DNA from: Longimicrobiales bacterium | Lineage (GTDB): Bacteria > Gemmatimonadota > Gemmatimonadetes > Longimicrobiales > Gaopeijiaceae | NCBI GenBank assembly: GCA_965202985.1 | Contig: CBDBCF010000001.1 | Location: forward strand, 2,784,001 to 2,848,000 | DNA: 64,000 bases | Direction: 5' to 3' | Part shown: positions 24,718 to 41,850 of the stretch, in pieces | Layout: every line of letters begins with the position of its first letter | Position numbering within the stretch: position 1 is the first letter of the stretch | Translations under genes and position numbers: made by a program | The notes under the pieces: model-generated | Databases searched by the model: none | Told to the model about the DNA's origin: nothing | The model's input: only the letters and a program-made list of their open reading frames with translations

Positions 24718-27507
<2,790 letters not shown>

Positions 27508-27640
27508 CACCGAGTAGGATCACAAGCTGGACGCGGCGAGAGACGCCGCGGTAGACAATCCGGGTGGCAGGGGGTTCGGCGCAGCGTCGCCGAGCCCCTT
27601 GCCGTCGCGCCGGGGTTCGTGCAGGCCAGGAGGACACCGA

Positions 27641-30427
27641 ATGACGAAACGGCAGCGGACCGTCCCGACGGCAGGCGCCGTGATTTCCTTGCTCGCGGCC
27701 GCGGGCTTGGTGTTGGCCGTGCCCGGCCACGTTGCCGCCCAAGGGACGATCGAGGGGCGCGTGAGCGCCGCGGGGACCGGCGCGAGACTGACGGCTGCGC
27801 AAGTATCGTTGACGGATCTTGGCCTGGGCGCCGTCACCGGGCCCCAGGGGCTGTACAGGATCGACGGCGTTCCCGCCGGCACCCACGGCGTCGCGATTCG
27901 CCTCATCGGCTACGGCACCCAGTTGCGCGAGGTGGTCGTGCTCGACGGCGAGACGACCCGCTTGGACGTGGAGCTCTCGCAAGCCGCCGTCGTGCTCGAG
28001 GGGCTGGTGGCGGTGGGGAGCAGGGCCAAGCCCCGGGCGGTCACCGCGTCGCCGGTGCCCGTGGACGCCATCGCCTCGACGGACTTCGCGAATCAGGGAG
28101 ACACGGACCTGAGCAGCCTCCTGCGCAACATCGCCCCGTCGTACAACGTCAACACCCAACCCATCGCGGACGCGGCCACGATCTCCCGGCCCGCGAACCT
28201 GCGCAACTTGGCGCCCGACCACACGCTGGTGCTGGTCAACGGAAAGCGGCGCCACCGGGCCGCTGCGATCGCGTGGTTCGGCAACGGCGTGGCGGACGGC
28301 GCCCAGGGACCGGACATCGCCGTCATCCCGTCGATCGCGCTTCGCCAAGTCGAGATACTGCGTGACGGCGCGTCGGCGCAGTACGGCTCCGACGCCATTG
28401 CCGGCGTCATGAACTTCCAGCTGCGCGACGACCGCTCCGGCGCCAGCCTGGAGGCCCGAACGGGCGCCTACCCCTTCGGTGGGGACGGCCAAGCGTTCAC
28501 GGTGGCCGGCAACGTGGGGCTGCCGCTGGGAGACGCGGGGTTCGCCAACCTCAGCGGCGAGTACGGCAACGCCGGACCCACCAGCCGGAGCGTGCAGCGG
28601 GACGACGCGGCGGCGCTGATCATGGCCGGAAACGCCGACGTGGCGACGCCGTCCCAGGTCTGGGGCTCCCCGGACGTGGCCGACGACGTGAAGCTGTGGG
28701 GGCACTTCGGGACGTTCCTTGGCGACGGCGTTCAGCTCTACGGCCACGGAAACTACGCCGCCAAGACCGTGGTGGGCGGCTTCTTCTTCCGAAACCCCAA
28801 CGAACGGCAGGCGATCTACAGCAACGACCAGGGGCGCACGCTCCTCGTCGCCGACATGCTGGACGCCCAGGACGGCGTGCTGGACGGCTCGGCCGACTGC
28901 CCGGTTGTTCGGATCGTGGGCGGCGTGCCGGACCCGGTCGCCTTCGGGCAGGTGAAGGACGACCCCAACTGCTTCTCGTTCCAGGAGATCCTGCCCGGCG
29001 GCTACACCCCCCAGTTCGGCGCCGACATGCTTGACGGTTCCGTGGTGACCGGCCTGAAGGGCGAGACCGGCTCCGGGATGCTCTGGGACGCCAGCGCCGG
29101 ATTCGGCAGCAACCGACTGGACTTCTTCATCGACCAGACGACCAACGCATCGCTGGGCCCGGCCACGCCGCTCCACTTCGAGCTGGGATCGTACCAGCAG
29201 CAGGAGCTCAACTTCAACGCGGACGTGTCCTACGCGGTCGGCGACGTGGTCAACGTGGCCGGCGGCGGCGAGTGGCGCGACGAGCGCTTCGAGATCGGCG
29301 GCGGCCAGGAAGAGTCCTGGGTGTTCGGACCGTTGGCGGCACAGGGCTTCCGGGCGGCGTCCGACGGCTTTCCCGGCTTCGGCCCTCTGGCCGTGGGCGA
29401 TTGGAGCCGGTCCAACTACGCCTTCTACGGCGACGTGGAGATGCGCGATCCGGACCAGGACCGCTGGACCGTTGGCGGCGCGGTCCGCTTCGAGACCTTC
29501 TCCGACTTCGGGCGCACGTTCAATTACAAGCTGGCGGGACGCTACGGGCTCAGCGACGCTGCGGGGGTGCGGGGCAGCGTCAGCACCGGCTTTCGCGCGC
29601 CCACGCCGGGTCAGCAGAACGCCTTCAACGTGACCACCGAGTTCGACAGGGAGATCAATGCGCCCGTCAACAAGGCCACGATCGCTTCCACCTCGCCCGT
29701 CGCGCGTTTGCGGGGCGGCAAACAGCTGCAGCCGGAGGAATCCGTCAACTTGGCGCTGGGCGCCGTGGTGGGTCTGGACGCGCTGAACCTGACCGTGGAC
29801 TACTTCCGAATCAGCGTGACCCAGCGGATATCGCTGACCCAGGACCTGCGGCTCGCGCCGTCCGAGGTGGAGCAGCTGCTGGCGGAAGGGATCACCGTCG
29901 CGGGAAACGTGCGGGACTTCCGATTCTTCACCAACGACTTCGACACGCGGACGCAAGGCGTGGACATCGTGGCAACCTACGAACCCGAAGCGTTGCGCGG
30001 CACGACCACCTTCACCTTCCTCTTCAACCACACCGACACCGAAGTCACCAGCTTCAGCCCCGACGTCATCGACGCTCGGCGGATTCGGGAGCTCCGGGAA
30101 GCGTTGCCCAAGACCCGCTGGAACTTGTCGGCTCAACATGCGCCCGGCCGCTGGCGCTTCTTGGCACGGCTCAACTACTACGGCGGATGGTACGACTCGG
30201 AGGACGCCCACTTCTACCAAGGCGACGCGACCGCGGACATGGAGGCGGCGTACTCCTTGGGCGAATTCGCCAACGTGGCGGTGGGCGGACGGAACGTGTT
30301 CAACGAGCTCCCGGGCCCGAACCCGCAGGCGGCGTTGGTCGGCAACCCGTACAGCCAGTACTCGCCCTACGGCTTCAACGGGGCGTATTTCTACGTGCGG
30401 ATGAACTACAGGTGGAGCTGGGAGTAG
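27641..30427 (+). CDS. TonB-dependent receptor, paralog 2
   Basis: Same architecture and plug motifs as paralog 1; RBS AGGAGG before ATG 27641. Confidence 0.92.
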   Translation: MTKRQRTVPTAGAVISLLAAAGLVLAVPGHVAAQGTIEGRVSAAGTGARLTAAQVSLTDLGLGAVTGPQGLYRIDGVPAGTHGVAIRLIGYGTQLREVVVLDGETTRLDVELSQAAVVLEGLVAVGSRAKPRAVTASPVPVDAIASTDFANQGDTDLSSLLRNIAPSYNVNTQPIADAATISRPANLRNLAPDHTLVLVNGKRRHRAAAIAWFGNGVADGAQGPDIAVIPSIALRQVEILRDGASAQYGSDAIAGVMNFQLRDDRSGASLEARTGAYPFGGDGQAFTVAGNVGLPLGDAGFANLSGEYGNAGPTSRSVQRDDAAALIMAGNADVATPSQVWGSPDVADDVKLWGHFGTFLGDGVQLYGHGNYAAKTVVGGFFFRNPNERQAIYSNDQGRTLLVADMLDAQDGVLDGSADCPVVRIVGGVPDPVAFGQVKDDPNCFSFQEILPGGYTPQFGADMLDGSVVTGLKGETGSGMLWDASAGFGSNRLDFFIDQTTNASLGPATPLHFELGSYQQQELNFNADVSYAVGDVVNVAGGGEWRDERFEIGGGQEESWVFGPLAAQGFRAASDGFPGFGPLAVGDWSRSNYAFYGDVEMRDPDQDRWTVGGAVRFETFSDFGRTFNYKLAGRYGLSDAAGVRGSVSTGFRAPTPGQQNAFNVTTEFDREINAPVNKATIASTSPVARLRGGKQLQPEESVNLALGAVVGLDALNLTVDYFRISVTQRISLTQDLRLAPSEVEQLLAEGITVAGNVRDFRFFTNDFDTRTQGVDIVATYEPEALRGTTTFTFLFNHTDTEVTSFSPDVIDARRIRELREALPKTRWNLSAQHAPGRWRFLARLNYYGGWYDSEDAHFYQGDATADMEAAYSLGEFANVAVGGRNVFNELPGPNPQAALVGNPYSQYSPYGFNGAYFYVRMNYRWSWE

Positions 30428-33174
30428 GGATTCGGGCGGCCGCGGCGTTGTTGGTCGCGGCGCTCCTGGGGGTGCCTTCCGTCGTTTCGGGCCAAGCGCC
30501 CGGCAGGGTCGAGGGCGTGGTGCGGGACGCGGCCACGGGGCGAGCGCTGGCCGGGGCGCAGGTGTCCTTGGCGGAGGCGGGCATGGGCGGCACCGCCGGG
30601 CCGGAGGGACGCTACCAGGTGGACGGCGTGCCGGCGGGCACGCATCAAGTCGAGTTCCACGCGATCGGCTATCGATCGGAGCGCCGGGAGGTCGTGGTCG
30701 CTGCCGGTCGGACCGCGCGGCTGGATGTGCTCATGGCCCCGGCCGCCATTGCCCTGGAGGGCGTGGTGGCCGTGGGAAGTCGAGCCCGTCAGCGAACCGC
30801 GACCGAGTCGATGGTGCCGATCGACGCCATCGCCGCCGCCGACTTCGCCGACCAGGGCGACACGGACTTGGGCGACTTGCTCCGCACGGTGGTGCCGTCG
30901 TACAACGTGAACCCGCAGGCCACCGGCGACGCGGCCCGCATCGTGCGGCCGGCGAACCTTCGTGGGCTGGCGCCCGACCACACCTTGGTCCTGGTCAACG
31001 GCAAGCGGCGCCACAGGGGATCGGTCATTACGTGGATCGGGAACGGCGTGTCCGACGGCGCCCAGGGCGCGGACGTCTCGGCGATCCCCGCTTTGGCGCT
31101 GCGCCAAGCCGAGGTGCTGCGCGACGGAGCGTCGGCCCAGTACGGCTCCGACGCCATTGCGGGCGTGCTGAACTTCCAGCTCAAGGACGCGCCGTCGGGC
31201 GGTGCGCTGGTGGTGCGGGGCGGGCGCTTCGGCGACGGCGGCGGGGAAGGGTACACGGTGTCCGGCAACGTGGGGCTCCCCCTGGGCGAGTCCGGGTTCG
31301 CGAACTTGACCGCCGAGTACGGCGCCTCCGAACCGTCCAGCCGGAGCGTACAGCGGGACGACGCCTTGCTGCTCGTGACCGCCGGCAACCGCCACGTCCG
31401 CGACCCGGCCCAGATCTGGGGCGCGCCCACCGTCGACGACGACCTCAAGCTGTGGGGCAACTTCGGAGGCTTCGCCGGCGAGAGCGTCCAGCTGTACGGC
31501 CACGCCAACTACAACCAGGAACGCGTCGAGGGCGGGTTCTTCTTCCGCAACCCGAACACCAGGGCGGGCGTGTTCAGCTTGGACGGCGGCCAGACGCTGC
31601 TGATCGGCGACGCCTTGGACGCACGGGACGGCGTGGCGGACGGCTCCGCGGGCTGTCCCGTGGTTGCAGTGACCAACGGTCTGCCGGACCCCGAGGCCTT
31701 GGCCCTAGTCTTTGCCGATCCGAACTGCTTCTCCTTCCAGGAAATGTTCCCCGGCGGCTTCACGCCCCAGTTCGGCGGAGACGCCAGCGACGGCTCCGTG
31801 GTCGTGGGCGCGAAGGGACAGGCCGGCCGGCTGGCTTGGGACGCCAGCGCCAGCATCGGCTTCAACCAAGTGGACTACTACATCTACAACACGGTCAACG
31901 CCTCGCTGGGACCGGACACGCCCTCCGAGTTCGACCCCGGCGCCAACCGGCAACAGGACGCCAGCGTGAACATGGACTTGGGCTACGCCGCCAGCGATCT
32001 GCTGTACGTTGCCGCGGGGGCCGAGTGGCGGGACGAGTACTTCGAGATCGGCCTGGGGGAAGACGCTTCGTGGCAGATCGGACCCTACGCGGCGCAGGGG
32101 TTCAGCGCGGGCTCGAACGGGTTCCCGGGTTTCAGCGACATCGCGCAGGGCGGATGGCACCGGGCCAACGCCGCCGTCTACGCCGACGCCGAGTTCCGTG
32201 ATCCGGAGGACGGGCGCTGGGCGCTGGGGGCCGCAGTTCGCTTCGAGAACTTTGCCGGATTCGGGGCGACCAGGACCGGCAAGCTCGCGGGGCGCGTGGG
32301 CGTCGGGGGCGGCGTCGGGCTTCGCGCCAGCGCCAGCACCGGCTTTCGGGCGCCCACGCCGGGCCAGCAGAACGCTTTCAACGTCTCGACGCAGTTCGAC
32401 CGGCAGCTGCGGGACTTGGTGAACAACGGCACGATCCCCTCGACCTCCGAGGTGGCCAAGCTGCGGGGCGGCGTGCCGCTGGAGCCCGAAGAGTCCGTGA
32501 ACCTGGGCGTGGGGGCCGTGCTGGAGCGAGGCGGATTCAGCCTGTCCGCGGACTACTTTCGCATCGTCCTGTCCGACCGAATCGCCCTGACCCGGGTGTT
32601 CAAGCTGACGGACCAGGAGCAGGACCGACTTGTGGCGGAAGGGATCACCAGTGCGCGCAACCTGCAGAACTTTCGCTTCTTCACCAACGACTTCGAGACG
32701 CGCACGCAGGGCTTCGACGTGGTGGCCGCCTGGGCGCCGTCGCAGGCTGGGGGCGGCGCCGAGTTCAGCTTTGTACTCAACCACACGGACACCAAGGTGA
32801 CGAAGCACGCGCCGGACGTGCTGAACGAGACCCGCATCAGGCAGCTGGAAGAGGGCCTTCCGCGCACGCGGTGGAACGTGACGGCCCGGCGAGAGTTCGG
32901 AGGCGTGGCCGTGCTGGGCCGGGCCAGCAGCTACGCCGGCTGGTTCGACGCCCGCGACGACCGACCCTACGGCGGAACCGTGCTGGTGGACTTGGAGGCG
33001 TCGTTCTCCGTCGGCGAGTCGCTGCGGCTGACCGTCGGCGGCGACAACGCCCTCAACCGCTACCCGGACAACAACCCCGACGCCGGCTTCTCCGGCAACC
33101 GCTACAGCCCCACGTCGCCCTTTGGTTCCAACGGCGGCTACTACTACGCCCGACTGGCCTACCGCTGGAACTGA
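30412..33174 (+). CDS. TonB-dependent receptor, paralog 3
   Basis: Same architecture; GTG at 30412 gives a signal peptide (start approximate); ends YRWN. Confidence 0.9.
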   Translation: MELGVGIRAAAALLVAALLGVPSVVSGQAPGRVEGVVRDAATGRALAGAQVSLAEAGMGGTAGPEGRYQVDGVPAGTHQVEFHAIGYRSERREVVVAAGRTARLDVLMAPAAIALEGVVAVGSRARQRTATESMVPIDAIAAADFADQGDTDLGDLLRTVVPSYNVNPQATGDAARIVRPANLRGLAPDHTLVLVNGKRRHRGSVITWIGNGVSDGAQGADVSAIPALALRQAEVLRDGASAQYGSDAIAGVLNFQLKDAPSGGALVVRGGRFGDGGGEGYTVSGNVGLPLGESGFANLTAEYGASEPSSRSVQRDDALLLVTAGNRHVRDPAQIWGAPTVDDDLKLWGNFGGFAGESVQLYGHANYNQERVEGGFFFRNPNTRAGVFSLDGGQTLLIGDALDARDGVADGSAGCPVVAVTNGLPDPEALALVFADPNCFSFQEMFPGGFTPQFGGDASDGSVVVGAKGQAGRLAWDASASIGFNQVDYYIYNTVNASLGPDTPSEFDPGANRQQDASVNMDLGYAASDLLYVAAGAEWRDEYFEIGLGEDASWQIGPYAAQGFSAGSNGFPGFSDIAQGGWHRANAAVYADAEFRDPEDGRWALGAAVRFENFAGFGATRTGKLAGRVGVGGGVGLRASASTGFRAPTPGQQNAFNVSTQFDRQLRDLVNNGTIPSTSEVAKLRGGVPLEPEESVNLGVGAVLERGGFSLSADYFRIVLSDRIALTRVFKLTDQEQDRLVAEGITSARNLQNFRFFTNDFETRTQGFDVVAAWAPSQAGGGAEFSFVLNHTDTKVTKHAPDVLNETRIRQLEEGLPRTRWNVTARREFGGVAVLGRASSYAGWFDARDDRPYGGTVLVDLEASFSVGESLRLTVGGDNALNRYPDNNPDAGFSGNRYSPTSPFGSNGGYYYARLAYRWN

Positions 33175-34723
33175 CCTTCAGCAGCGCGCCGTCGGCGAAC
33201 TCCGCCACCAATTGGACGCCGGGCAGGGCAAGCAGGTCGGACATGTCGTAGTCGACGCCGGCGCAGTAGGCCCGGCCCTCTTCGGCCTGGGAAGGGAAGA
33301 ACAGAATGTAGGCGTCGGCGCCCAGGCCCGAAAGGAAGAACTCTCGCCAAGTGCTCCGTTGGCATGGGATGTACCTGTGACTCGGCGGCGTGGTCGTGTG
33401 GATGTAGGCGGCGGCGGCGTCGTTGCTGACCAGGGTTCTGGACAGTCCGTGCTCGCGCACGTAGCGCAGCGCGTCGGAGTTCGTCCACCGTGGCGCTGCG
33501 TAACCATGATCGAAGCCGGCCAACGCTTTCTTCGTCGTAGGAACAAGGGCCGCTGCCTGCGGCAGCACGAGGATCAGACAGGCCACGGACGCGACGAAGC
33601 GACGTCGGCGACTCCCTGCGTTGCGGGGCAGGTCCACCGCCAGCAGCGCCGCCAGCAAGAAAGACATGTACACGGGGACGAAGAAACGCGGGAGCAACTG
33701 GTGCGTTGCGCCCCACATGACGGCTGGGACAAGCAGCACGACTTGCGCCAGCCCGTAGCCCCCAAAGAGCGCGACGGACGCACCGTTCGCGGGCTGGCCC
33801 GCCCCCGGGCGGCGGCGACCCGTCCGTCGCCCCTGCACAGCCAGTGCAAGCAGGACGATCGCCAGGGCGCCGGCGACCAGCCCCAGAAGCCCGGGCAGCC
33901 AGCCTATGTAAGCCGCCATGTCGGAAGCGAGGTTCACGCCTTGGTCCAGAACTTCCGCCAATGACGGGTCGCCGTATTTGCGGCGGCCTGTCCATGTATC
34001 CGCCACGACCCGGCTGCGGAACGCCCACGCGCACACGGGAAGGCAGGAGACGACGGCGAAGACCGCGATCCGCTTCAGCCTCTCGGTCGAAGCAACGCCA
34101 CGGCGAAACCCAACCACCGCCACCACGACCGGAACAAGCACGACGCCGAAGAACCGGCAAAGGCAAGCCAGAGCGGCGAACACGGCCGCCCACGCCAAAC
34201 AGCGCCGGCTCCGCCTCTGCTCCGCAGTGCGGATGGATTCGTCGACCTTGATCAAGGACAGCGTCGACAGCAGAACGAAGGCCGTTTCGTTCATCGCCCA
34301 CGTGCCTGCCCAAATCAATGGAGCGGAAAACGCAACCGCAAGGCAGCCGACCACGGCAAGAGACGGTGCCTTCAGCCGTCTGCGCATCCACCGGCCGGTC
34401 GCGAATACGGTCGCTCCCAACAGCACCGCGTTCAAGGGGCCGGCTACGGCGCGAGGGTCGAAGACGAACAGGCTTGCGGCGGCAAGCATCGTCGGATACA
34501 GAGGCGGAAAGGTTCGGTACGGGCGGCCGTCGAACCGGACGAATCCGTCGCCCGACAACAGGTTCCTTGCCGTGCCGACGTAGTTGACGGAGTCCCAGTC
34601 CAATGCAACCCCGTGACCGAACTGTTGCAACAGCACGAGTCCGGCCCCGGTCGCCGACAGCAGCGCAAGGAAGACGCCGAAGCGGCCCGGCGGCCGCAAA
34701 GGCCAACCTCTGGTCGGGTTCAT
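33053..34723 (-). CDS. ArnT/PMT-like (GT-C fold) membrane glycosyltransferase
   Basis: DSVNY in the first loop, FPPLYP, NETAF, ACLCRFFG, PRFFVPVY; many TM helices; 3' end overlaps TBDR3 convergently. Confidence 0.65.
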   Translation of the reverse strand: MNPTRGWPLRPPGRFGVFLALLSATGAGLVLLQQFGHGVALDWDSVNYVGTARNLLSGDGFVRFDGRPYRTFPPLYPTMLAAASLFVFDPRAVAGPLNAVLLGATVFATGRWMRRRLKAPSLAVVGCLAVAFSAPLIWAGTWAMNETAFVLLSTLSLIKVDESIRTAEQRRSRRCLAWAAVFAALACLCRFFGVVLVPVVVAVVGFRRGVASTERLKRIAVFAVVSCLPVCAWAFRSRVVADTWTGRRKYGDPSLAEVLDQGVNLASDMAAYIGWLPGLLGLVAGALAIVLLALAVQGRRTGRRRPGAGQPANGASVALFGGYGLAQVVLLVPAVMWGATHQLLPRFFVPVYMSFLLAALLAVDLPRNAGSRRRRFVASVACLILVLPQAAALVPTTKKALAGFDHGYAAPRWTNSDALRYVREHGLSRTLVSNDAAAAYIHTTTPPSHRYIPCQRSTWREFFLSGLGADAYILFFPSQAEEGRAYCAGVDYDMSDLLALPGVQLVAEFADGALLKVSSSGRPVGRSSSRRWNQRATWGCSGCRRSRRRGCCPGSG

Positions 34724-34915
34724 GCTTGTTCCGCTCCTTGAAGCGACTCCGGCTCGATTCGTCGGACCCGGACGGCACCAAACTTGGATCGGCCACGATA
34801 GCGTTTGACCGCGCGTTGCTCAACGGCGGCCCGAGGCGCGCCCTGTTGGGGCTTGCCTCCGCGCACCATAGATTCCAGGGTGGCGGAGAGTTTCAGGAGG
34901 CGACTTTCGGAGAGG

Positions 34916-36790
34916 ATGAACGTGCGACGCCCAGACGAAGGCGGGTCCACGACGTCCGAACTGCCTCTTCTGCATCGGGCGGCCGTGGCCTACCTCGTCT
35001 TGCCGTTTGTCGTCTGGCTCGTCGGCTGGTTTCGCTGGGAGGTCGGCGTGCCGCTGGCGCTTCTCCTTGCCGCGGGCTTGCGGAGAGCGCTCGCAGGCGG
35101 CTGGAGGGTTTCCAAGCCATCCCGCGCGTCGGTAGCCGTGCTGCTTGCGGCCGCCGCGTGGATCGCCACAACGCCGGCCTTTGGTCTCTTCCAAGGCCAT
35201 TCCGACTGGATCATTCACCGAGCCGTGCTGCTCGATCTGGTCCGGGGCGAATGGCCCACCTACTTGGCCGGCTACGTCGACAACCCACCGCTGTTGCGCT
35301 ACTACCTCGGGTGGTACATGGCGCCGGCGCTGACGGGTCGTTGGCTGGGCGCCTGGGCCCTGAACTGGGCGGTGCCATTGTGGACATGGTGCGGCATTTC
35401 CTTGGCGCTGCTGCTCTTCGCCCGAGGCCTGCGCACTACGGGCGCGGCGCTTGCAGGCGCGGCGGTGCTGATCTTGTTCGGCGGCATGGACATGGCCGAG
35501 CACGCCCTGCGCGAAGGCGTGCCGGAGACGGCTAGCCGCTTGTTGGGTGCGCCCGATCGCGACTCGACCGAGGTCGTCAGGCCCTTCGGATTCGTTCGCG
35601 CCGGTGACAGCCCCATGATGCTGGACTACCAATCGAACCACATGACGTTGCTGGCGACCCCTCAGCACTTCATCCCCGGGGCGGTGGCGGCACTCTTGAT
35701 CCTTCAAGCGGGCGGCCGCCGGCGCTTCTTGGCGGTCCTCGGCATTGTCTTGGCGGCCTGCGTCTTCTGGTCGACGCTTCTCTCGACGGGCTTGCTGCCC
35801 TTGGCGGCCGCCGCGGCGCTTCGGAGAGGACGCATTCGCTCCTTGCTCACTTGGCAAAACACTGTGCTGGCGGTCGCTCTGGCGGGCGTGCTGGCGCTGT
35901 ATTTGACGAGCGGCGATGTGGACTATCCGCGGGGCTGGCTCTGGAGTCTGTACGACAGCAAGCTTCGGATGACGGCCGATCTGCTGTTTCTCTACGCGAG
36001 CGAGTTTCTGGTGCTGGTGTTCCTCCTGTGGCGGCTGGATCCGGATGTGGTACGACAGCCGATCTTCGTTGCGTCGGTGGGCGTGTTGCTGGTTATGCCC
36101 TGGTTCTACTACGGGGGCACGCGTTTCGACGAATGGGGCATCCGGTTCGTGGTGCCGTCTCTGGTCGTCGTTTCCAGCTTCACCGCCCGCGCGTTGGTCG
36201 CGGGCTGGCCCAGGGGACCTGCGGGTCGCCGGCCGAGAGCGGCGTTCGGCGCATTGCTTGCGGTGCTGGGGGTCGGCGTGCTCACCTGGGTTGTCGATGC
36301 CGGGCCAGCGATTGCCCACCCCCAATGGCGGCTGCCCTTCGAGCGCGCGGAAGCTTCTCTGTTGGTCGACGGCAGCTCCCGGGGAGTTCGACAACGAACC
36401 AGCGTTGCCGTCCCCGAACTGCTCGACGCCGTGCTCAGGAAGTCCGGCGTCTCGGCCCCTCCCGGTCGTCTGCTGATTCGGTCGGCGTACGACGTGTACC
36501 TGGAAAACGACCGCTTGGTGTACGTGAAGCAGAACTGCTTGCCGGAAGACCACGCCGACTTCTTCTTGGAGGTCCATCCCCAAGACGCGAAGGCGTTGCC
36601 CGCCGACCTGCAGCGTGTGGGATACGAGACGCTGCACTTTCGTCTGGAGCCGTGGGAGCACCTCAAGCGCGGCGCGTGCATCGTGCCCAGCAGGCCGTTC
36701 GGCTACGCCGCGGCGCGGATCACGACTGGGCAGTTCGTGTCGGGCGAGGGACGGATCTGGGAGGCCGAGGCGGCGATCGGTCGGCCGTAG
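34916..36790 (+). CDS. Multi-pass membrane protein (possible GT-C type) with a C-terminal soluble beta domain
   Basis: DWIIHRAVLLDL, LRYYLGWY, PQHFIPG; about 12 hydrophobic segments; tail LIRSAYDVYLENDRLVYVKQNC...FFLEVHP...ITTGQF...IWE. Confidence 0.6.
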   Translation: MNVRRPDEGGSTTSELPLLHRAAVAYLVLPFVVWLVGWFRWEVGVPLALLLAAGLRRALAGGWRVSKPSRASVAVLLAAAAWIATTPAFGLFQGHSDWIIHRAVLLDLVRGEWPTYLAGYVDNPPLLRYYLGWYMAPALTGRWLGAWALNWAVPLWTWCGISLALLLFARGLRTTGAALAGAAVLILFGGMDMAEHALREGVPETASRLLGAPDRDSTEVVRPFGFVRAGDSPMMLDYQSNHMTLLATPQHFIPGAVAALLILQAGGRRRFLAVLGIVLAACVFWSTLLSTGLLPLAAAAALRRGRIRSLLTWQNTVLAVALAGVLALYLTSGDVDYPRGWLWSLYDSKLRMTADLLFLYASEFLVLVFLLWRLDPDVVRQPIFVASVGVLLVMPWFYYGGTRFDEWGIRFVVPSLVVVSSFTARALVAGWPRGPAGRRPRAAFGALLAVLGVGVLTWVVDAGPAIAHPQWRLPFERAEASLLVDGSSRGVRQRTSVAVPELLDAVLRKSGVSAPPGRLLIRSAYDVYLENDRLVYVKQNCLPEDHADFFLEVHPQDAKALPADLQRVGYETLHFRLEPWEHLKRGACIVPSRPFGYAAARITTGQFVSGEGRIWEAEAAIGRP

Positions 36791-38579
36791 CCAGGGCCGC
36801 GAGCACGCCCGCCGCAAACAAGTATGCGCCCAGGTGGAGCAGGTGGTCGAACGCCAAGCTGTACAAGACCATGGCGAGCCCCCCTCCGACGACGGCCGCG
36901 CTTGCCGGCGAGCGGGGCGGACTCCAGCGCGTTCGCAAGAGCGACAACAAGAACAGCACGTAGAACGACGCGGGCACAATGCCGGCTTCTCCCGCCAGCT
37001 TCAAGTACATGTTGTGCACGCTCGTCGGTGTGCCCGTCCGGTCGTTGGGAGCGCCGGACAGGCTGAGCATGCTGCCGATTCCGTGACCGACGAAGGGAGA
37101 CTCCAAGAACCGTCGCGCGCCGATCCGCCAAATGGACGCTCTCCGCGCAAAGTCGCCGGTACGGGGCGGATCGACGAATCGATGGTCGCCGGACCAGCCG
37201 TTGCCGCTCATGCGGACGCGAGAGAGCTGCTCGAAGTTGTCCAGAGTCCAGGGCCCGGGACCCGACAGCCGGTTGTTGTCCACGATCAGGACGCTCAGCT
37301 GCGGGAGCGTGCCCAGCTCCGGAGGAAGGCGGCCCGTCAGGGCGTTCTTGCCCAAGTTCAGGAACCTCAGGCGGGCCAGGGCGCCTAGTTGCGGCGGTAT
37401 GGGCCCGGACAGGCGATTCCGGTGGAGGCGGAGGACGGACAAGCGGTCCAGACCGGCCAGCTCGGCAGGGATCTGCCCGCTCAAGCCCATATCCGACAGA
37501 TCGAGCGAGACCACGCGGGGCGGCTCTCCCGCCATCCGGACGCCCCGCCAATGCGCGAGGGGATGCCCATCGGTCCAGTTCAGGCTGGCGCGGCCTTCCG
37601 ACCCGCCCACCAGCACGCCGGCCGTCGCTTGGAGGACCGTGCAGTCGCGACGGAGGCCCGGGTTGGACGGCGGGACCTGGGCGCAGTACATGGCCGGGCC
37701 CGGGCTGACGTGGTATTCGATGTAGGACTTCGTGTTCTTGAAGTCCCGAGCAGTGTGGACGAACAGCCCGAGTGCTGCGGCCACGGGCGCCCACCGCGCG
37801 ACAACGGCCCACGGGCGGAGGCCGGTCGACCCCAGGTGGTGAAGCCATGTTGCCGCAAGGACGATGCATGCCGTGGTGGAGAGGGACGCCAGGGCGGCCA
37901 GAACGCCCAGGGTCGCACCCGAGAGCGCAAGCTTGCGGTGTCTTGGGCCCTGCAGCAGGGCGAGCGCCACGACGACCGTGATGCATCCGACGAACCCGGC
38001 TTCGTTGGGGTCGACAAAGGCGCCGGACATGCGAAAAGCCCGTCGGGAGGGCCACACCACCCACCAATGCCGCAGCAGCGGCGTGGCGACGACGATCGCG
38101 CAGCTTGCCGTCAACACCGTCAGCACGCCCTTCAACAGGAAGTCGGCGCCGGACCTGCGGATGAGAAGCCGACTGCCGAGAACGGCGGCGGACAGCAGGC
38201 CGAAGTAGAACGCTGGACGCAGCAAGAGTCCGGGAAGGCCGACGCTCGAATGCGCAACGGGTTCGGCCCCATAGGACAGCGCACCGATAGCCGCGTACGT
38301 GGCCAAAGCGGTCAAGAGCAGCGCGGCTGGCCTCCCCGGCGCCAGCGACCGCGCCTTGATCGCACCGGCCAGCACCGCGACGCAACAGCCGGCCGCAACG
38401 GCGAACCCGACGACCTTGATCATTGGGAGGCCCCAAAGATACAGGTACGACAGGTTGCACAGAGCGACGACGGCGAGCGCCCAGAACGCCCACGGAAAAC
38501 CGGCGAACGGCTCGATGCCCGTCGGGTTCGGCCTCGCGAGGCCCGCCCTAGTCGCTGACCGGTCTCCTGTCCGCGCCAA
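36720..38579 (-). CDS. O-antigen ligase/Wzy_C family membrane protein with an inserted plant-type LRR domain
   Basis: RMSGAFVDPNEAG; RASIW...SPFVGHGIG...HNMYLKLAGEAG Wzy_C motifs; internal LSGQIPAELAGL / LSGPIPPQLGAL / LTGRLPPELGTL repeats; start uncertain. Confidence 0.8.
   Translation of the reverse strand: MARTGDRSATRAGLARPNPTGIEPFAGFPWAFWALAVVALCNLSYLYLWGLPMIKVVGFAVAAGCCVAVLAGAIKARSLAPGRPAALLLTALATYAAIGALSYGAEPVAHSSVGLPGLLLRPAFYFGLLSAAVLGSRLLIRRSGADFLLKGVLTVLTASCAIVVATPLLRHWWVVWPSRRAFRMSGAFVDPNEAGFVGCITVVVALALLQGPRHRKLALSGATLGVLAALASLSTTACIVLAATWLHHLGSTGLRPWAVVARWAPVAAALGLFVHTARDFKNTKSYIEYHVSPGPAMYCAQVPPSNPGLRRDCTVLQATAGVLVGGSEGRASLNWTDGHPLAHWRGVRMAGEPPRVVSLDLSDMGLSGQIPAELAGLDRLSVLRLHRNRLSGPIPPQLGALARLRFLNLGKNALTGRLPPELGTLPQLSVLIVDNNRLSGPGPWTLDNFEQLSRVRMSGNGWSGDHRFVDPPRTGDFARRASIWRIGARRFLESPFVGHGIGSMLSLSGAPNDRTGTPTSVHNMYLKLAGEAGIVPASFYVLFLLSLLRTRWSPPRSPASAAVVGGGLAMVLYSLAFDHLLHLGAYLFAAGVLAALATADRSPPRPPRSVPRPTRTAQS
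37190..37690 (-). repeat. LRR domain: N-cap (C...DC...LNW...WRGV) plus about 4 24-aa plant-type LRRs
   Basis: LxxLxLxxNxL(S/T)GxIPxxLGxL periodicity read directly from the translation. Confidence 0.85.
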
Positions 38580-40923: not shown

Positions 40924-41054
40924 GGAATGACCTGCGATTGCGGCTACCTCGCGACAACACCAGTTGAACGGCTGCCCGATGGGCCAATGTCGCTCCCGCG
41001 CCGAATCATCGCAAAAAGCGGGCATCGACAGTGCTCGGCTGCGGCTCGGCCCGA

Positions 41055-41850
41055 CCAACGGTCAGGCGGGCCGTTTGTCGCCCGCGCCAGCAGCTTGTCG
41101 CCCGAGTCGCAGTCCACCACGGTGTCCGCCGCCTCGTCCACCAGCTCCGATCCCGACCCCGCCAAGATGCGACGCAGCCGCTCCGCCGTCCCTGACCCGA
41201 ACCGCCGCTCCGCCAGGCGAACCACCAGCGCCCGCTTGTCGGCCAGCCCCTGTTCCAACCCCTGCTCGCTGGTCTCTCGCCGGAGTTCCTCCGCTGCTTC
41301 CGCCGCCTGCCAGGACATGCCGCCTCCCTCCCTTGGGTGTCTGATCCGCTCCACGATGCGATCAATCGTCGCCGGCGCCACGCCCATCGCGCGTGCCGCC
41401 TCTTCCGCCCACACAGCGTAGCCCTCCCGCACGCCCGCGTGCTCCGGACCGCCGTAGCTTGCTCCGCGGCCGACCTCGAGTCAAGCACCCCGTACGCATG
41501 AGCCGTCTGCCGCCGCGCGACGCTCGGCGATCCCGGCGGCGCCAGCGCGGCCAAGCTGGTCAGCGCGCGCCACGGCTCGGGGCCGATGTGCAGCACAGCG
41601 GACAGGACGGCGGGCGCGCCGCTGCCGTCGGAGTGGTTCCACTGCTCGCTGGCTTTGAGGAAGCGGTAGAGGTGGGCGACGTACTCGAGGCTTCGGAAGA
41701 GCATGTCTAGCCGACGGCGGACTGGTACTCGACGTGGAAGCCGACGGCGCGGCGGCGGTGGCGGAAGGGGACCCACCAAGCGGCGTCGACGCGCCGGAGC
41801 TCGGCCCCGCGGAAGGGACCCGCGCCCGCCGGCAAGCCTGTCCCATCCAG
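41055..41850 (-). pseudogene. Rpn/YhgA-like (PD-(D/E)XK) putative transposase, frameshifted remnant
   Basis: RRVDAAWWV...FHVEYQS, a frameshift, then DMLFRSLEY...PAVLSAVLHIGPEPWRA, another shift, then EQGLEQG...RLAERRFG C-terminus. Confidence 0.7.

Follow-up and report, generated by a model that had tools for sequence, protein, structure and literature searches.

Gene arrangement at the locus

The window, i.e. the complete 64,000-nucleotide stretch of DNA that was analysed, contains an uninterrupted reading frame for a predicted WaaL-fold membrane glycosyltransferase with an inserted LRR domain. This frame and the associated features are listed in Table 1. As read from the sequence, the start codon is a TTG that overlaps the end of the upstream peptidase gene, within its final 32 nt; an ATG at codon 53 is the next start in frame. 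The sequence-only reading had not noticed this overlap. The gene is part of a block whose flanks carry genes for TonB-dependent receptors and for an S9 peptidase. In G002, the two flanking genes end side by side where the block would sit. The frame of the putative GT-C glycosyltransferase extends beyond the block edge, antisense to a receptor gene. A mobile-element signature was sought and not accepted: no terminal repeats were found at the block edges, and the GC3 values of the block (0.79-0.83) are only slightly lower than those of the flanking genes (0.85-0.92).

Table 1. Features of the glycosyltransferase gene and its block (window positions).
Feature	Positions	Strand	Basis
Predicted WaaL-fold membrane glycosyltransferase ORF with inserted LRR domain	36720..38579	-	619 aa, single open frame
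Membrane part at the N-terminus (predicted helices 1-9; residues 28-278)	37746..38498	-	AlphaFold secondary structure; alternating Lys/Arg-rich inner loops
R183, RxxGxFxDPN outer loop	38031..38033	-	Arg/Lys in 131/136 family members
T235 at the WaaL Arg191 site (first diphosphate-binding Arg); Arg missing	37875..37877	-	Profile alignment
LRR N-cap, residues 299-354 (C299, C313, W335, W344)	37518..37685	-	Invariant alignment columns; model
24-aa LRRs of plant type: four full, one degenerate (residues 355-465)	37185..37517	-	Pfam, PDB matches, structure match
C-terminal part (residues 476-599): end of the catalytic loop plus predicted helices 10-12	36783..37154	-	Pfam, AlphaFold secondary structure
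R480, equivalent of WaaL Arg265	37140..37142	-	Profile alignment
H522, equivalent of WaaL His313 (catalytic His)	37014..37016	-	Profile alignment
H579, last outer loop	36843..36845	-	His in 46/53 cargo carriers vs 13/72 short-loop relatives with a residue there
Three-gene block, 5.4-kb	33175..38547		G002, a genome of the same genus, lacks it at this site
Multi-pass membrane protein, GT-C-like by eye; unannotated ~110-aa C-terminal domain	34805..36790	+	No Pfam or NCBIfam match
Putative GT-C membrane glycosyltransferase	33053..34723	-	Weak matches: TMEM260-like E 0.027; NF047440 E 1.4e-4

A chimeric join is ruled out because the whole gene is spanned by single contigs from two other sponge-metagenome studies; this count omits run X1, which is possibly the source, and run X8 yielded short pieces only. 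No RNA dataset is listed among the runs containing this DNA.

Fold and topology of the membrane protein

The following motifs were located: R183-MSGAFVDPN192, R480-ASIW484, P495-x2-G498-x-G500, H522-N523-x-Y525 and E531-x-G533. The Pfam domain Wzy_C was detected at residues 474-540 (E 2.7e-6) with 27.7 bits, which is below the cut-off of 31.7; the domain is split by the insert, and insert-free relatives exceed the PF04932 cut-off.

An AlphaFold model (pLDDT 87.7, pTM 0.87) predicts 12 helices in the arrangement of the O-antigen ligase WaaL from Cupriavidus metallidurans (PDB 7TPG/7TPJ; CAZy GT121; Pfam PF04932), so that both proteins would have the GT-CB fold in common across the membrane part. 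Superposition on 7TPJ gave a Z of 21.2 and an rmsd of 4.5 for 337 aligned residues, covering model residues 24-603. The Foldseek listing contained LRR structures only, and PDB searches with a single sequence and with 8 sequences failed to recover WaaL. The WaaL match and the pattern of Lys/Arg charges rule out a cytoplasmic LRR. The predicted model and the charge alternation bear out the sequence-only reading, which had placed the LRR between WaaL-type flanks, directly before the conserved Arg of the large extracytoplasmic loop; this Arg is the second of the catalytic set. Since the host genome encodes LpxC and KdtA, this loop lies in the periplasm, with the outer membrane beyond.

In the reading that we prefer, and to which we assign a probability of roughly 0.42, the protein is an accessory, still active WaaL-fold ligase or O-oligosaccharyltransferase whose LRR cargo binds the acceptor or a partner. 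Both the quality of the model and its similarity to 7TPJ count in favour of this reading.

The inserted LRR domain

The loop stretch comprises 201 aa, compared to 20-45 aa in short relatives. The Cys/Trp N-cap and the plant-type 24-aa repeats that had been recognised earlier were found again, with four full repeats (residues 355-378, 379-402, 403-426 and 427-450) and, in addition, a degenerate fifth one ending at about residue 465. Pfam LRR_1 matches the insert with an E of 4.5e-10. Its 24-aa repeat LxxLxLxxNxLsGxIPxxLg and the presence of an N-cap assign the insert to the plant-specific LRR class. Nearly all of the 60 PDB sequence matches listed (of 166) are plant LRR receptor-type proteins; the nearest sequences to the insert are other bacterial cassettes. 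Matches to the NCBIfam models of XopAC, XopAE and internalin span the LRR only and are far under the cut-off, and an effector identity was not accepted.

The ectodomains of the plant proteins ERL1, SERK/BAK1, BIR and SOBIR1 consist of the same 24-aa repeat in a capped short solenoid (ERL1: Z 21.9, rmsd 1.8, 155 residues). However, plant LRR receptors are single-pass proteins with or without a kinase, whereas the window protein is a polytopic enzyme lacking a kinase domain. Moreover, the cap cysteines of plant LRRs flank a WxGV motif, whereas here they are located upstream of it.

This similarity to plant peptide-receptor and co-receptor ectodomains, the closest solved folds, would suit a ligand-gated enzyme, whose activity is switched by a small host-derived peptide or glycan bound in the periplasm. 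The receptor and peptidase genes beside the block and the sponge metagenome label of the runs containing the DNA point in the same direction. Yet the flanking genes constitute a resident site that exists without the block in G002, the relatives lie in glycan clusters and not next to receptors, and the cargo is interchangeable. Because the loop is periplasmic and has the outer membrane as a shield, a host ligand is highly unlikely to gate the enzyme. Of the earlier interpretation, the family, fold, topology and LRR type stand, whereas its proposal of host-ligand gating is unlikely. Host mimicry is also excluded as the direct role of the LRR by its periplasmic placement.

Catalytic residues

Alignments of the family profile to 7TPG, counted along the printed chain, place T235, R480 and H522 on R191, R265 and H313, which speaks for the preferred reading. 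These alignments start downstream of R183, which has no assigned WaaL counterpart. The open frame with Wzy_C/WaaL motifs on both sides had been identified correctly in the sequence-only reading, but the residue set is not canonical, as T235 occupies the Arg191 site, which that reading had missed. Arg191 of WaaL binds the donor diphosphate (PMC10920833), and bioRxiv 2022.10.31.514599 lists the corresponding E. coli residue, R215, as critical. The Thr at this site counts against the preferred reading.

All seven members of the window clade contain this Thr. Neither Arg nor Lys is found at the Arg191 site in 28 of 53 cargo carriers, whereas the catalytic His is kept in all 53; 46 of these have one further His and one additional Arg. 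For the 31 members without Arg/Lys at this site (mean identity 41%), H522 is conserved in 31/31, R480 in all 30 that could be aligned and R183 in 30/31, which again supports an active enzyme. The association of cargo with Arg loss (Fisher p 1e-10) is based on non-independent members and is reduced to 1 independent pair on supported branches, which counts against the preferred reading. Of the sequence pattern H[NSQ]x9Gxx[GTY], HN-x9-G is present and the final position is Pro; this position also deviates in 76/83 short-loop relatives.

Alternatively, the protein could be a decaying or dead enzyme that merely anchors the LRR binding domain in the membrane. This view is compatible with the 11 residue states at the Arg191 site among the 53 cargo carriers, with a start codon taken from the upstream gene and with broken copies in relatives (L024, L027, L028, L030), the last of which also count against the preferred reading. 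However, Arg-less members retain the His, the second Arg, R183 and HN-x9-G, and the gene is free of any listed indel in two other strains. For Ig-cargo members with Phe or Tyr at the Arg191 site, dN/dS of the catalytic half is 0.14-0.15 (3 pairs, 123 codons), which is counted for the preferred reading as well. We consider a mere anchor very unlikely. A two-cassette clade, with a dN/dS of 0.52-1.07 in the catalytic half, is under weak constraint, and this counts against the preferred reading. All dN/dS pairs were taken from relatives outside the window's own clade.

It is also conceivable that the protein is a Wzy-type polymerase and that the insert replaces a missing co-polymerase as chain guide or length ruler. 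Some His-type Wzy_C proteins function as polymerases, so the His is compatible with such an activity. A Wzz match is lacking in four of five carrier genomes and is distant in the fifth, where it lies far from the locus; the length of the array is highly variable, and Wzx flippase matches accompanied by GT2/GT4 genes occur in 4 of 10 loci. On the other hand, the window's block contains no flippase and no Wzz/Wzc, and the host possesses a separate polymerase locus with Wza and Wzc. A weak Wzx match in the host adjoins a MATE transporter and is probably no flippase. Furthermore, the His occurs at the catalytic position in 136/136 family members, which lack the Asp/Glu of Wzy polymerases of clan GT-C1 (GT125-129), and an Asp/Glu at this position is what PMC10920833 gives for the polymerase families of the clan. 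A polymerase is accordingly quite unlikely. The separate polymerase locus and a second Wzy_C gene of the host, which has the full Arg/Arg/His set, count for an accessory ligase.

Relatives and variety of the cargo

Forms with an LRR, whose cassette number runs from 1 to 9, were found in five phyla, and the family is passed among phyla inside glycan gene clusters. A word-index search with the N-terminal half recovered only the 6 closest relatives, and an atlas search returned only leads below 0.9. Sister proteins carry Ig-like, other-repeat or Pro/Thr cargo in the same loop; a search of the rest of the host genome with a profile of 7 sequences gave no Ig cargo. Three observations are counted for the preferred reading. 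Glycan genes are present in 10/10 cargo loci scanned, including the 4 with a Wzx-type flippase match; genome G286 has two LRR paralogues and one Ig paralogue in a single cluster; and two Caldilineaceae genomes with cargo forms have no KdtA match. Three others are counted against it. P0205, P0185 and P0189 have Pro/Thr repeats or no cargo within the same clade; P0005-P0007, which are 72-74% identical, contain only ~2 repeats and offer a small surface; and a pilin gene or another candidate for the acceptor was recognised neither beside the gene nor as a recurrent element of the loci.

The same variety would be expected of an active ligase that tolerates its cargo, the LRR being a passenger, spacer or scaffold from the repeat pool of sponge symbionts without a role in specificity; the acceptor would then be lipid A-core or another envelope glycan. 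Unrelated cargo, low-complexity linkers and cargo-free forms coexist within one clade, the array ranges from ~2 repeats to 9 cassettes, stand-alone LRR proteins are numerous in same-genus genomes, and the host has LpxC and KdtA. Against a passenger speak the N-cap, which is invariant over 18 aligned sequences of 38-99% identity, the retention of large inserts across phyla, the cargo forms in genomes without KdtA, and the other intact Wzy_C gene of the host. We regard this alternative as unlikely.

On the concave face of the LRR, dN/dS is at least 1.5 in 5 of 10 pairs, compared to 0.52-0.74 for the whole insert; these values come from pairs that are not independent and from 25-30 codons. The excess as such was counted for the preferred reading, the small codon number and the non-independence against it.

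Proposed function

According to the preferred reading, the enzyme would take an oligosaccharide unit from its lipid carrier and attach it to an acceptor on the periplasmic side of the inner membrane. The donors may be supplied by the host's own polyprenyl-PP-glycan pathway. By analogy with WaaL, R480 would bind the donor phosphate and H522 would activate the acceptor hydroxyl, and H579 and R170, which are typical of the cargo clade, may compensate for the lost Arg. The inserted LRR is likely an exchangeable binding module that recruits a partner or the protein to be glycosylated. Rather than lipid A-core, the acceptor is probably a protein that is secreted or exposed at the surface. Judged from the sequences, selection of the acceptor by the LRR is plausible, but it is weakened because close relatives have ~2 repeats and sister proteins carry unrelated, low-complexity or no cargo.

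A more far-reaching proposal, possible but doubtful, is that of a programmable glycosyltransferase family among sponge symbionts. It would combine a WaaL-fold chassis and a rewired donor site with a loop slot for LRR, Ig or other modules that choose the surface-protein target, and gene trading and cassette shuffling would re-dress the surfaces. The rewiring refers to a dispensable Arg191 and to the extra His and Arg.

It is an open question how enzymes of the WaaL fold discriminate between acceptors that are lipids, glycans or proteins. They serve as tools for the production of glycoconjugate vaccines. The occurrence of many loop inserts on one chassis shows that the catalytic loop tolerates large binding domains. 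Natural pairs with and without cargo, or with and without Arg191, are suited for tests of targeting. The unexplained LRR enrichment of sponge symbionts would moreover be tied to surface glycosylation. If the cargo is a passenger, the finding reduces to a curiosity of domain shuffling.

Comparison with known systems

A literature search of the main texts of open-access papers found no published description of a WaaL fold with an LRR in its loop, i.e. no paper in which the fusion is already a described family. WadA (GT121 plus GT25) is a precedent for a ligase fused with a second domain (PMC10920833); its partner domain is appended and catalytic, whereas the window protein carries a repeat domain without catalytic function within its outer catalytic loop. 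PglL, PglS, TfpO and TfpM have the Wzy_C domain and the essential His in common with the window protein (PMC9829042, PMC3643930), and the passages covered describe no inserted binding domain for them. PglL_A or other PglL-specific Pfam models matched neither the window protein (E 0.1) nor 80 relatives (E 0.01). The window protein likewise has no TfpM match, and no pilin gene was recognised among the neighbours scanned. Short-loop relatives gave weak matches to the TfpM model (13/80) and to PEP_O_lig_1 (25/80).

According to PMC8163846, sponge-associated genomes are enriched for LRR proteins, which are laterally transferred among them. The two large LRR proteins of the host are apparently lipoproteins that stand alone, and their cassette is more distant (37-39% identity), whereas the LRR of the window protein is anchored in the inner membrane by both of its ends.

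Architecture and authenticity of the window protein

The sequence-only reading had proposed one uninterrupted ORF that carries about four plant-type LRRs within a Wzy_C/WaaL enzyme. The ORF is stop-free (see table), and its LRR domain comprises four complete 24-aa repeats and a degenerate fifth, preceded by a cap (C299, C313, W335, W344). The sequence matches 166 PDB chains, and the best 60 of these are nearly all plant LRR receptor-type. The AlphaFold model, based on a 115-sequence alignment, reached a pLDDT of 87.7 (70.5 in an 18-sequence run) and a pTM of 0.87. Among 48,161 solved chains, ERL1 resembles residues 311-472 of the model (Z 21.9, rmsd 1.8) and WaaL 7TPJ resembles residues 24-603 (Z 21.2, rmsd 4.5, 337 aligned), followed by SEDS proteins (Z 11-14). 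The regions flanking the LRRs are thus predicted to adopt a WaaL fold, as had been claimed. With loop limits assigned by hand from the model, 2-5 Lys/Arg residues are found in the even-numbered loops and at both ends, and none in the short odd loops. This pattern places the LRR insert outside, beside the catalytic residues, in agreement with the earlier reading.

The DNA is present in sequencing runs of five studies; five listed runs from two studies are labelled sponge metagenome. The contig comparison took in 4 of 15 listed runs, of which X1 may be the source and X8 yields short pieces. In X3 and X7, one contig each spans the whole gene; about 2% of letters differ across the stretch, and the differences listed for this gene include no indel. 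An artefactual join was therefore rejected. The architecture is real and well supported, and a full-text literature search found no paper on a WaaL/Wzy_C plus LRR combination, in line with the earlier statement that no characterised example was known.

Coordinates of the window gene and of accompanying features (window positions unless residues, loci L or contigs C1 and C2 of the host genome G000 are named)
Feature	Position	Strand	Remark
ORF of window protein	36720-38579	minus	619 aa, no internal stop
LRRs	residues 355-457		Pfam
Wzy_C end	residues 474-540		Pfam, 27.7 bits vs cut-off 31.7
TTG start region	38547-38579		TTG start within last 32 nt of peptidase gene
Related tandem TonB-dependent receptor genes	24718-33174		two scanned, third read by eye
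Unannotated ~110-aa domain	36437-36787	plus	conserved Cys, RTGQ-like end; also L020, L024, L025, L041, G000 C2:454097-459923
Two short ORFs	40944-41779		only weak HTH matches; resemble fragments of Rpn/transposase-like gene
GC 0.575	60001-62000		~0.69 elsewhere
Three tandem paralogues of neighbour 34805-36790	L048:8098-13924 (G000 C2)		adjoin Kdo synthesis genes
Short-loop relatives between miaB and comEC (G000, G001, G003)	L016:5795-10865, L017:6160-11365, L018:10171-15693		full Arg/Arg/His set
Broken family copies	L024:6528-8393, L027:2946-9063, L028:6088-8406, L030:8034-8969		stop, frameshift or internal deletion; intact paralogues adjoin in three of the four loci
Big stand-alone LRR proteins	G000 C1:976369-979845, C2:813836-818338		lipoprotein-like signals, several plant-type cassettes

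Local context and start codon

A 5.4-kb block, made up of the window gene and the genes of two putative GT-C membrane proteins, separates a TonB-dependent receptor gene from an S9 peptidase gene. In the same-genus genome G002 the receptor and peptidase genes end side by side, and in G001 and G003 different genes lie downstream of the receptor. The 3' end of the last receptor is a variable site whose cargo differs in each same-genus genome. No full-length match to the window protein was found in 40 relatives; a C-half profile detected short-loop forms only, in two of three other genus members.

The start of the gene is uncertain because the TTG sits in the peptidase gene, depends on the sole ATT among its 16 Ile codons, and is missing at the equivalent position of G002; it may be a newly captured start. 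GGAG lies 7 nt before it. Use of the next possible start, codon 53, would remove helix 1.

Many membrane glycan enzymes encoded in the family's gene clusters carry the ~110-aa domain as an appendage, among them a further Wzy_C protein of L025. Kdo-gene adjacency hints that the GT-C-like family of neighbour 34805-36790 modifies LPS.

The loop as a cargo slot

An N-half profile gave 410 matches among 1.84 billion representatives. The 150 listed, combined with our loci and freed of fragments, yielded a 136-sequence set. Here the loop has at most 50 aa in 83 proteins and 51-100 aa in 8; it contains LRRs in 33, Ig-like domains in 7 (8 with P0179) and other cargo in 5. Ig-like cargo occurs in 1-4 copies, SCAB-Ig exceeding the cut-off in P0199; further types are an unannotated repeat and Pro/Thr runs. 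In P0234, P0261, P0272 and P0202 a third, unannotated repeat domain occupies the loop; P0202 (1,494 aa) apparently has two tandem ligase domains and a C-terminal SnoaL-like domain.

All cargo forms and two cargo-free proteins fall into one clade (FastTree 0.986, SH-aLRT 95; bootstrap 96 in a 32-sequence set). LRR forms require at least two changes on supported branches, which implies more than one swap or loss of cargo. The window cassette is 45-75% identical to family cassettes, compared to 37-39% for the LRR proteins that the host encodes elsewhere.

Active site

Profiles built from 80 and from 115 family sequences match WaaL 7TPG (E 6.9e-8 and 4.8e-11). By profile alignment, with equivalence set by counting along the printed chain, the family SR Arg corresponds to R191, RxxxW to R265 and HN to H313, to which PMC10920833 assigns diphosphate binding and acceptor activation. 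The window protein contains T235, R480 and H522. The proposed family membership holds for the predicted fold and two residues, but not for the R191 site. Arg or Lys occupies this site in 80/83 short-loop proteins and only 25/53 cargo carriers, and the tree requires 8 changes. The His is present in 136/136 sequences; at the second site, each of the 126 sequences that align has Arg or Lys. H579 (46/53 cargo carriers versus 13/72 short-loop relatives with a residue there) and Arg/Lys170 (46/53 versus 6/83) are clade traits that amount to a single independent contrast, and fall short of proving compensation for the lost Arg. By a simple counting method applied to GC-rich genes, catalytic-half dN/dS is 0.14-0.15 for Arg-less Ig forms and 0.52-1.07 for an Arg-keeping two-cassette clade. 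That the protein is a dead anchor, as the lost Arg might suggest and the invariant His would not, is improbable.

The window protein would work like WaaL, yet lacks one of its defining residues; its working mode would also resemble that of Wzy_C O-OTases, but the PglL/TfpM markers are absent. It is therefore classed as a GT121-like variant outside any named family.

Candidate function

The most likely reading, with a probability of roughly 0.4, is an accessory, active transferase whose inserted cargo would bind the acceptor or a partner. Strict targeting is opposed by cargo of only ~2 repeats in close relatives and by low-complexity cargo; an insert that is merely a tolerated passenger would accommodate both, and is a weaker but real contender. 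A polymerase with a built-in guide would fit the absence of Wzz from 4/5 carrier genomes; the host has a separate polymerase locus, and we consider this reading unlikely. Gating by a host ligand, also raised earlier, seems very improbable, sponge-labelled runs notwithstanding.

For the accessory transferase, acceptors need not be lipid A-core. The host is a diderm with LpxC and KdtA; Caldilineaceae carriers gave no KdtA match, so the family's acceptors are not limited to lipid A-core. The host's second, canonical Wzy_C gene lies between miaB and comEC. The relatives at this position in G000, G001 and G003 are just 22-28% alike and possibly glycosylate competence pilin.

Family spread and gene neighbourhoods

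Among 120 listed of 182 matches, at least 17 proteins (38-99% identity, three truncated) share the architecture at ≥65% query coverage. With one genome per species, the C-half profile found 12 loci, a lower bound given its single short pattern. LRR forms occupy eight (Gammaproteobacteria, Entotheonella, Vicinamibacterales, Latescibacteria, Gemmatimonadota), non-LRR inserts three (Pseudomonadales and two Caldilineaceae; one frameshifted), and one has no insert. In the host phylum, the N-half profile matched 4/401 genomes (6 candidates scored per genome). Between copies from different phyla, dS of the membrane parts is only 0.1-0.3, which points to recent transfer.

The neighbour scan covered 54 of 198 candidate ORFs. 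Glycan genes (GT2, GT4, epimerase) occur at 10/10 cargo loci covered, and a Wzx-type flippase match at 4/10. Family genes are frequently in tandem, and LRR arrays extend to ~2,000 aa, where a pattern count gives 8-9 caps. Many more stand-alone plant-type LRR proteins are found in same-genus genomes.
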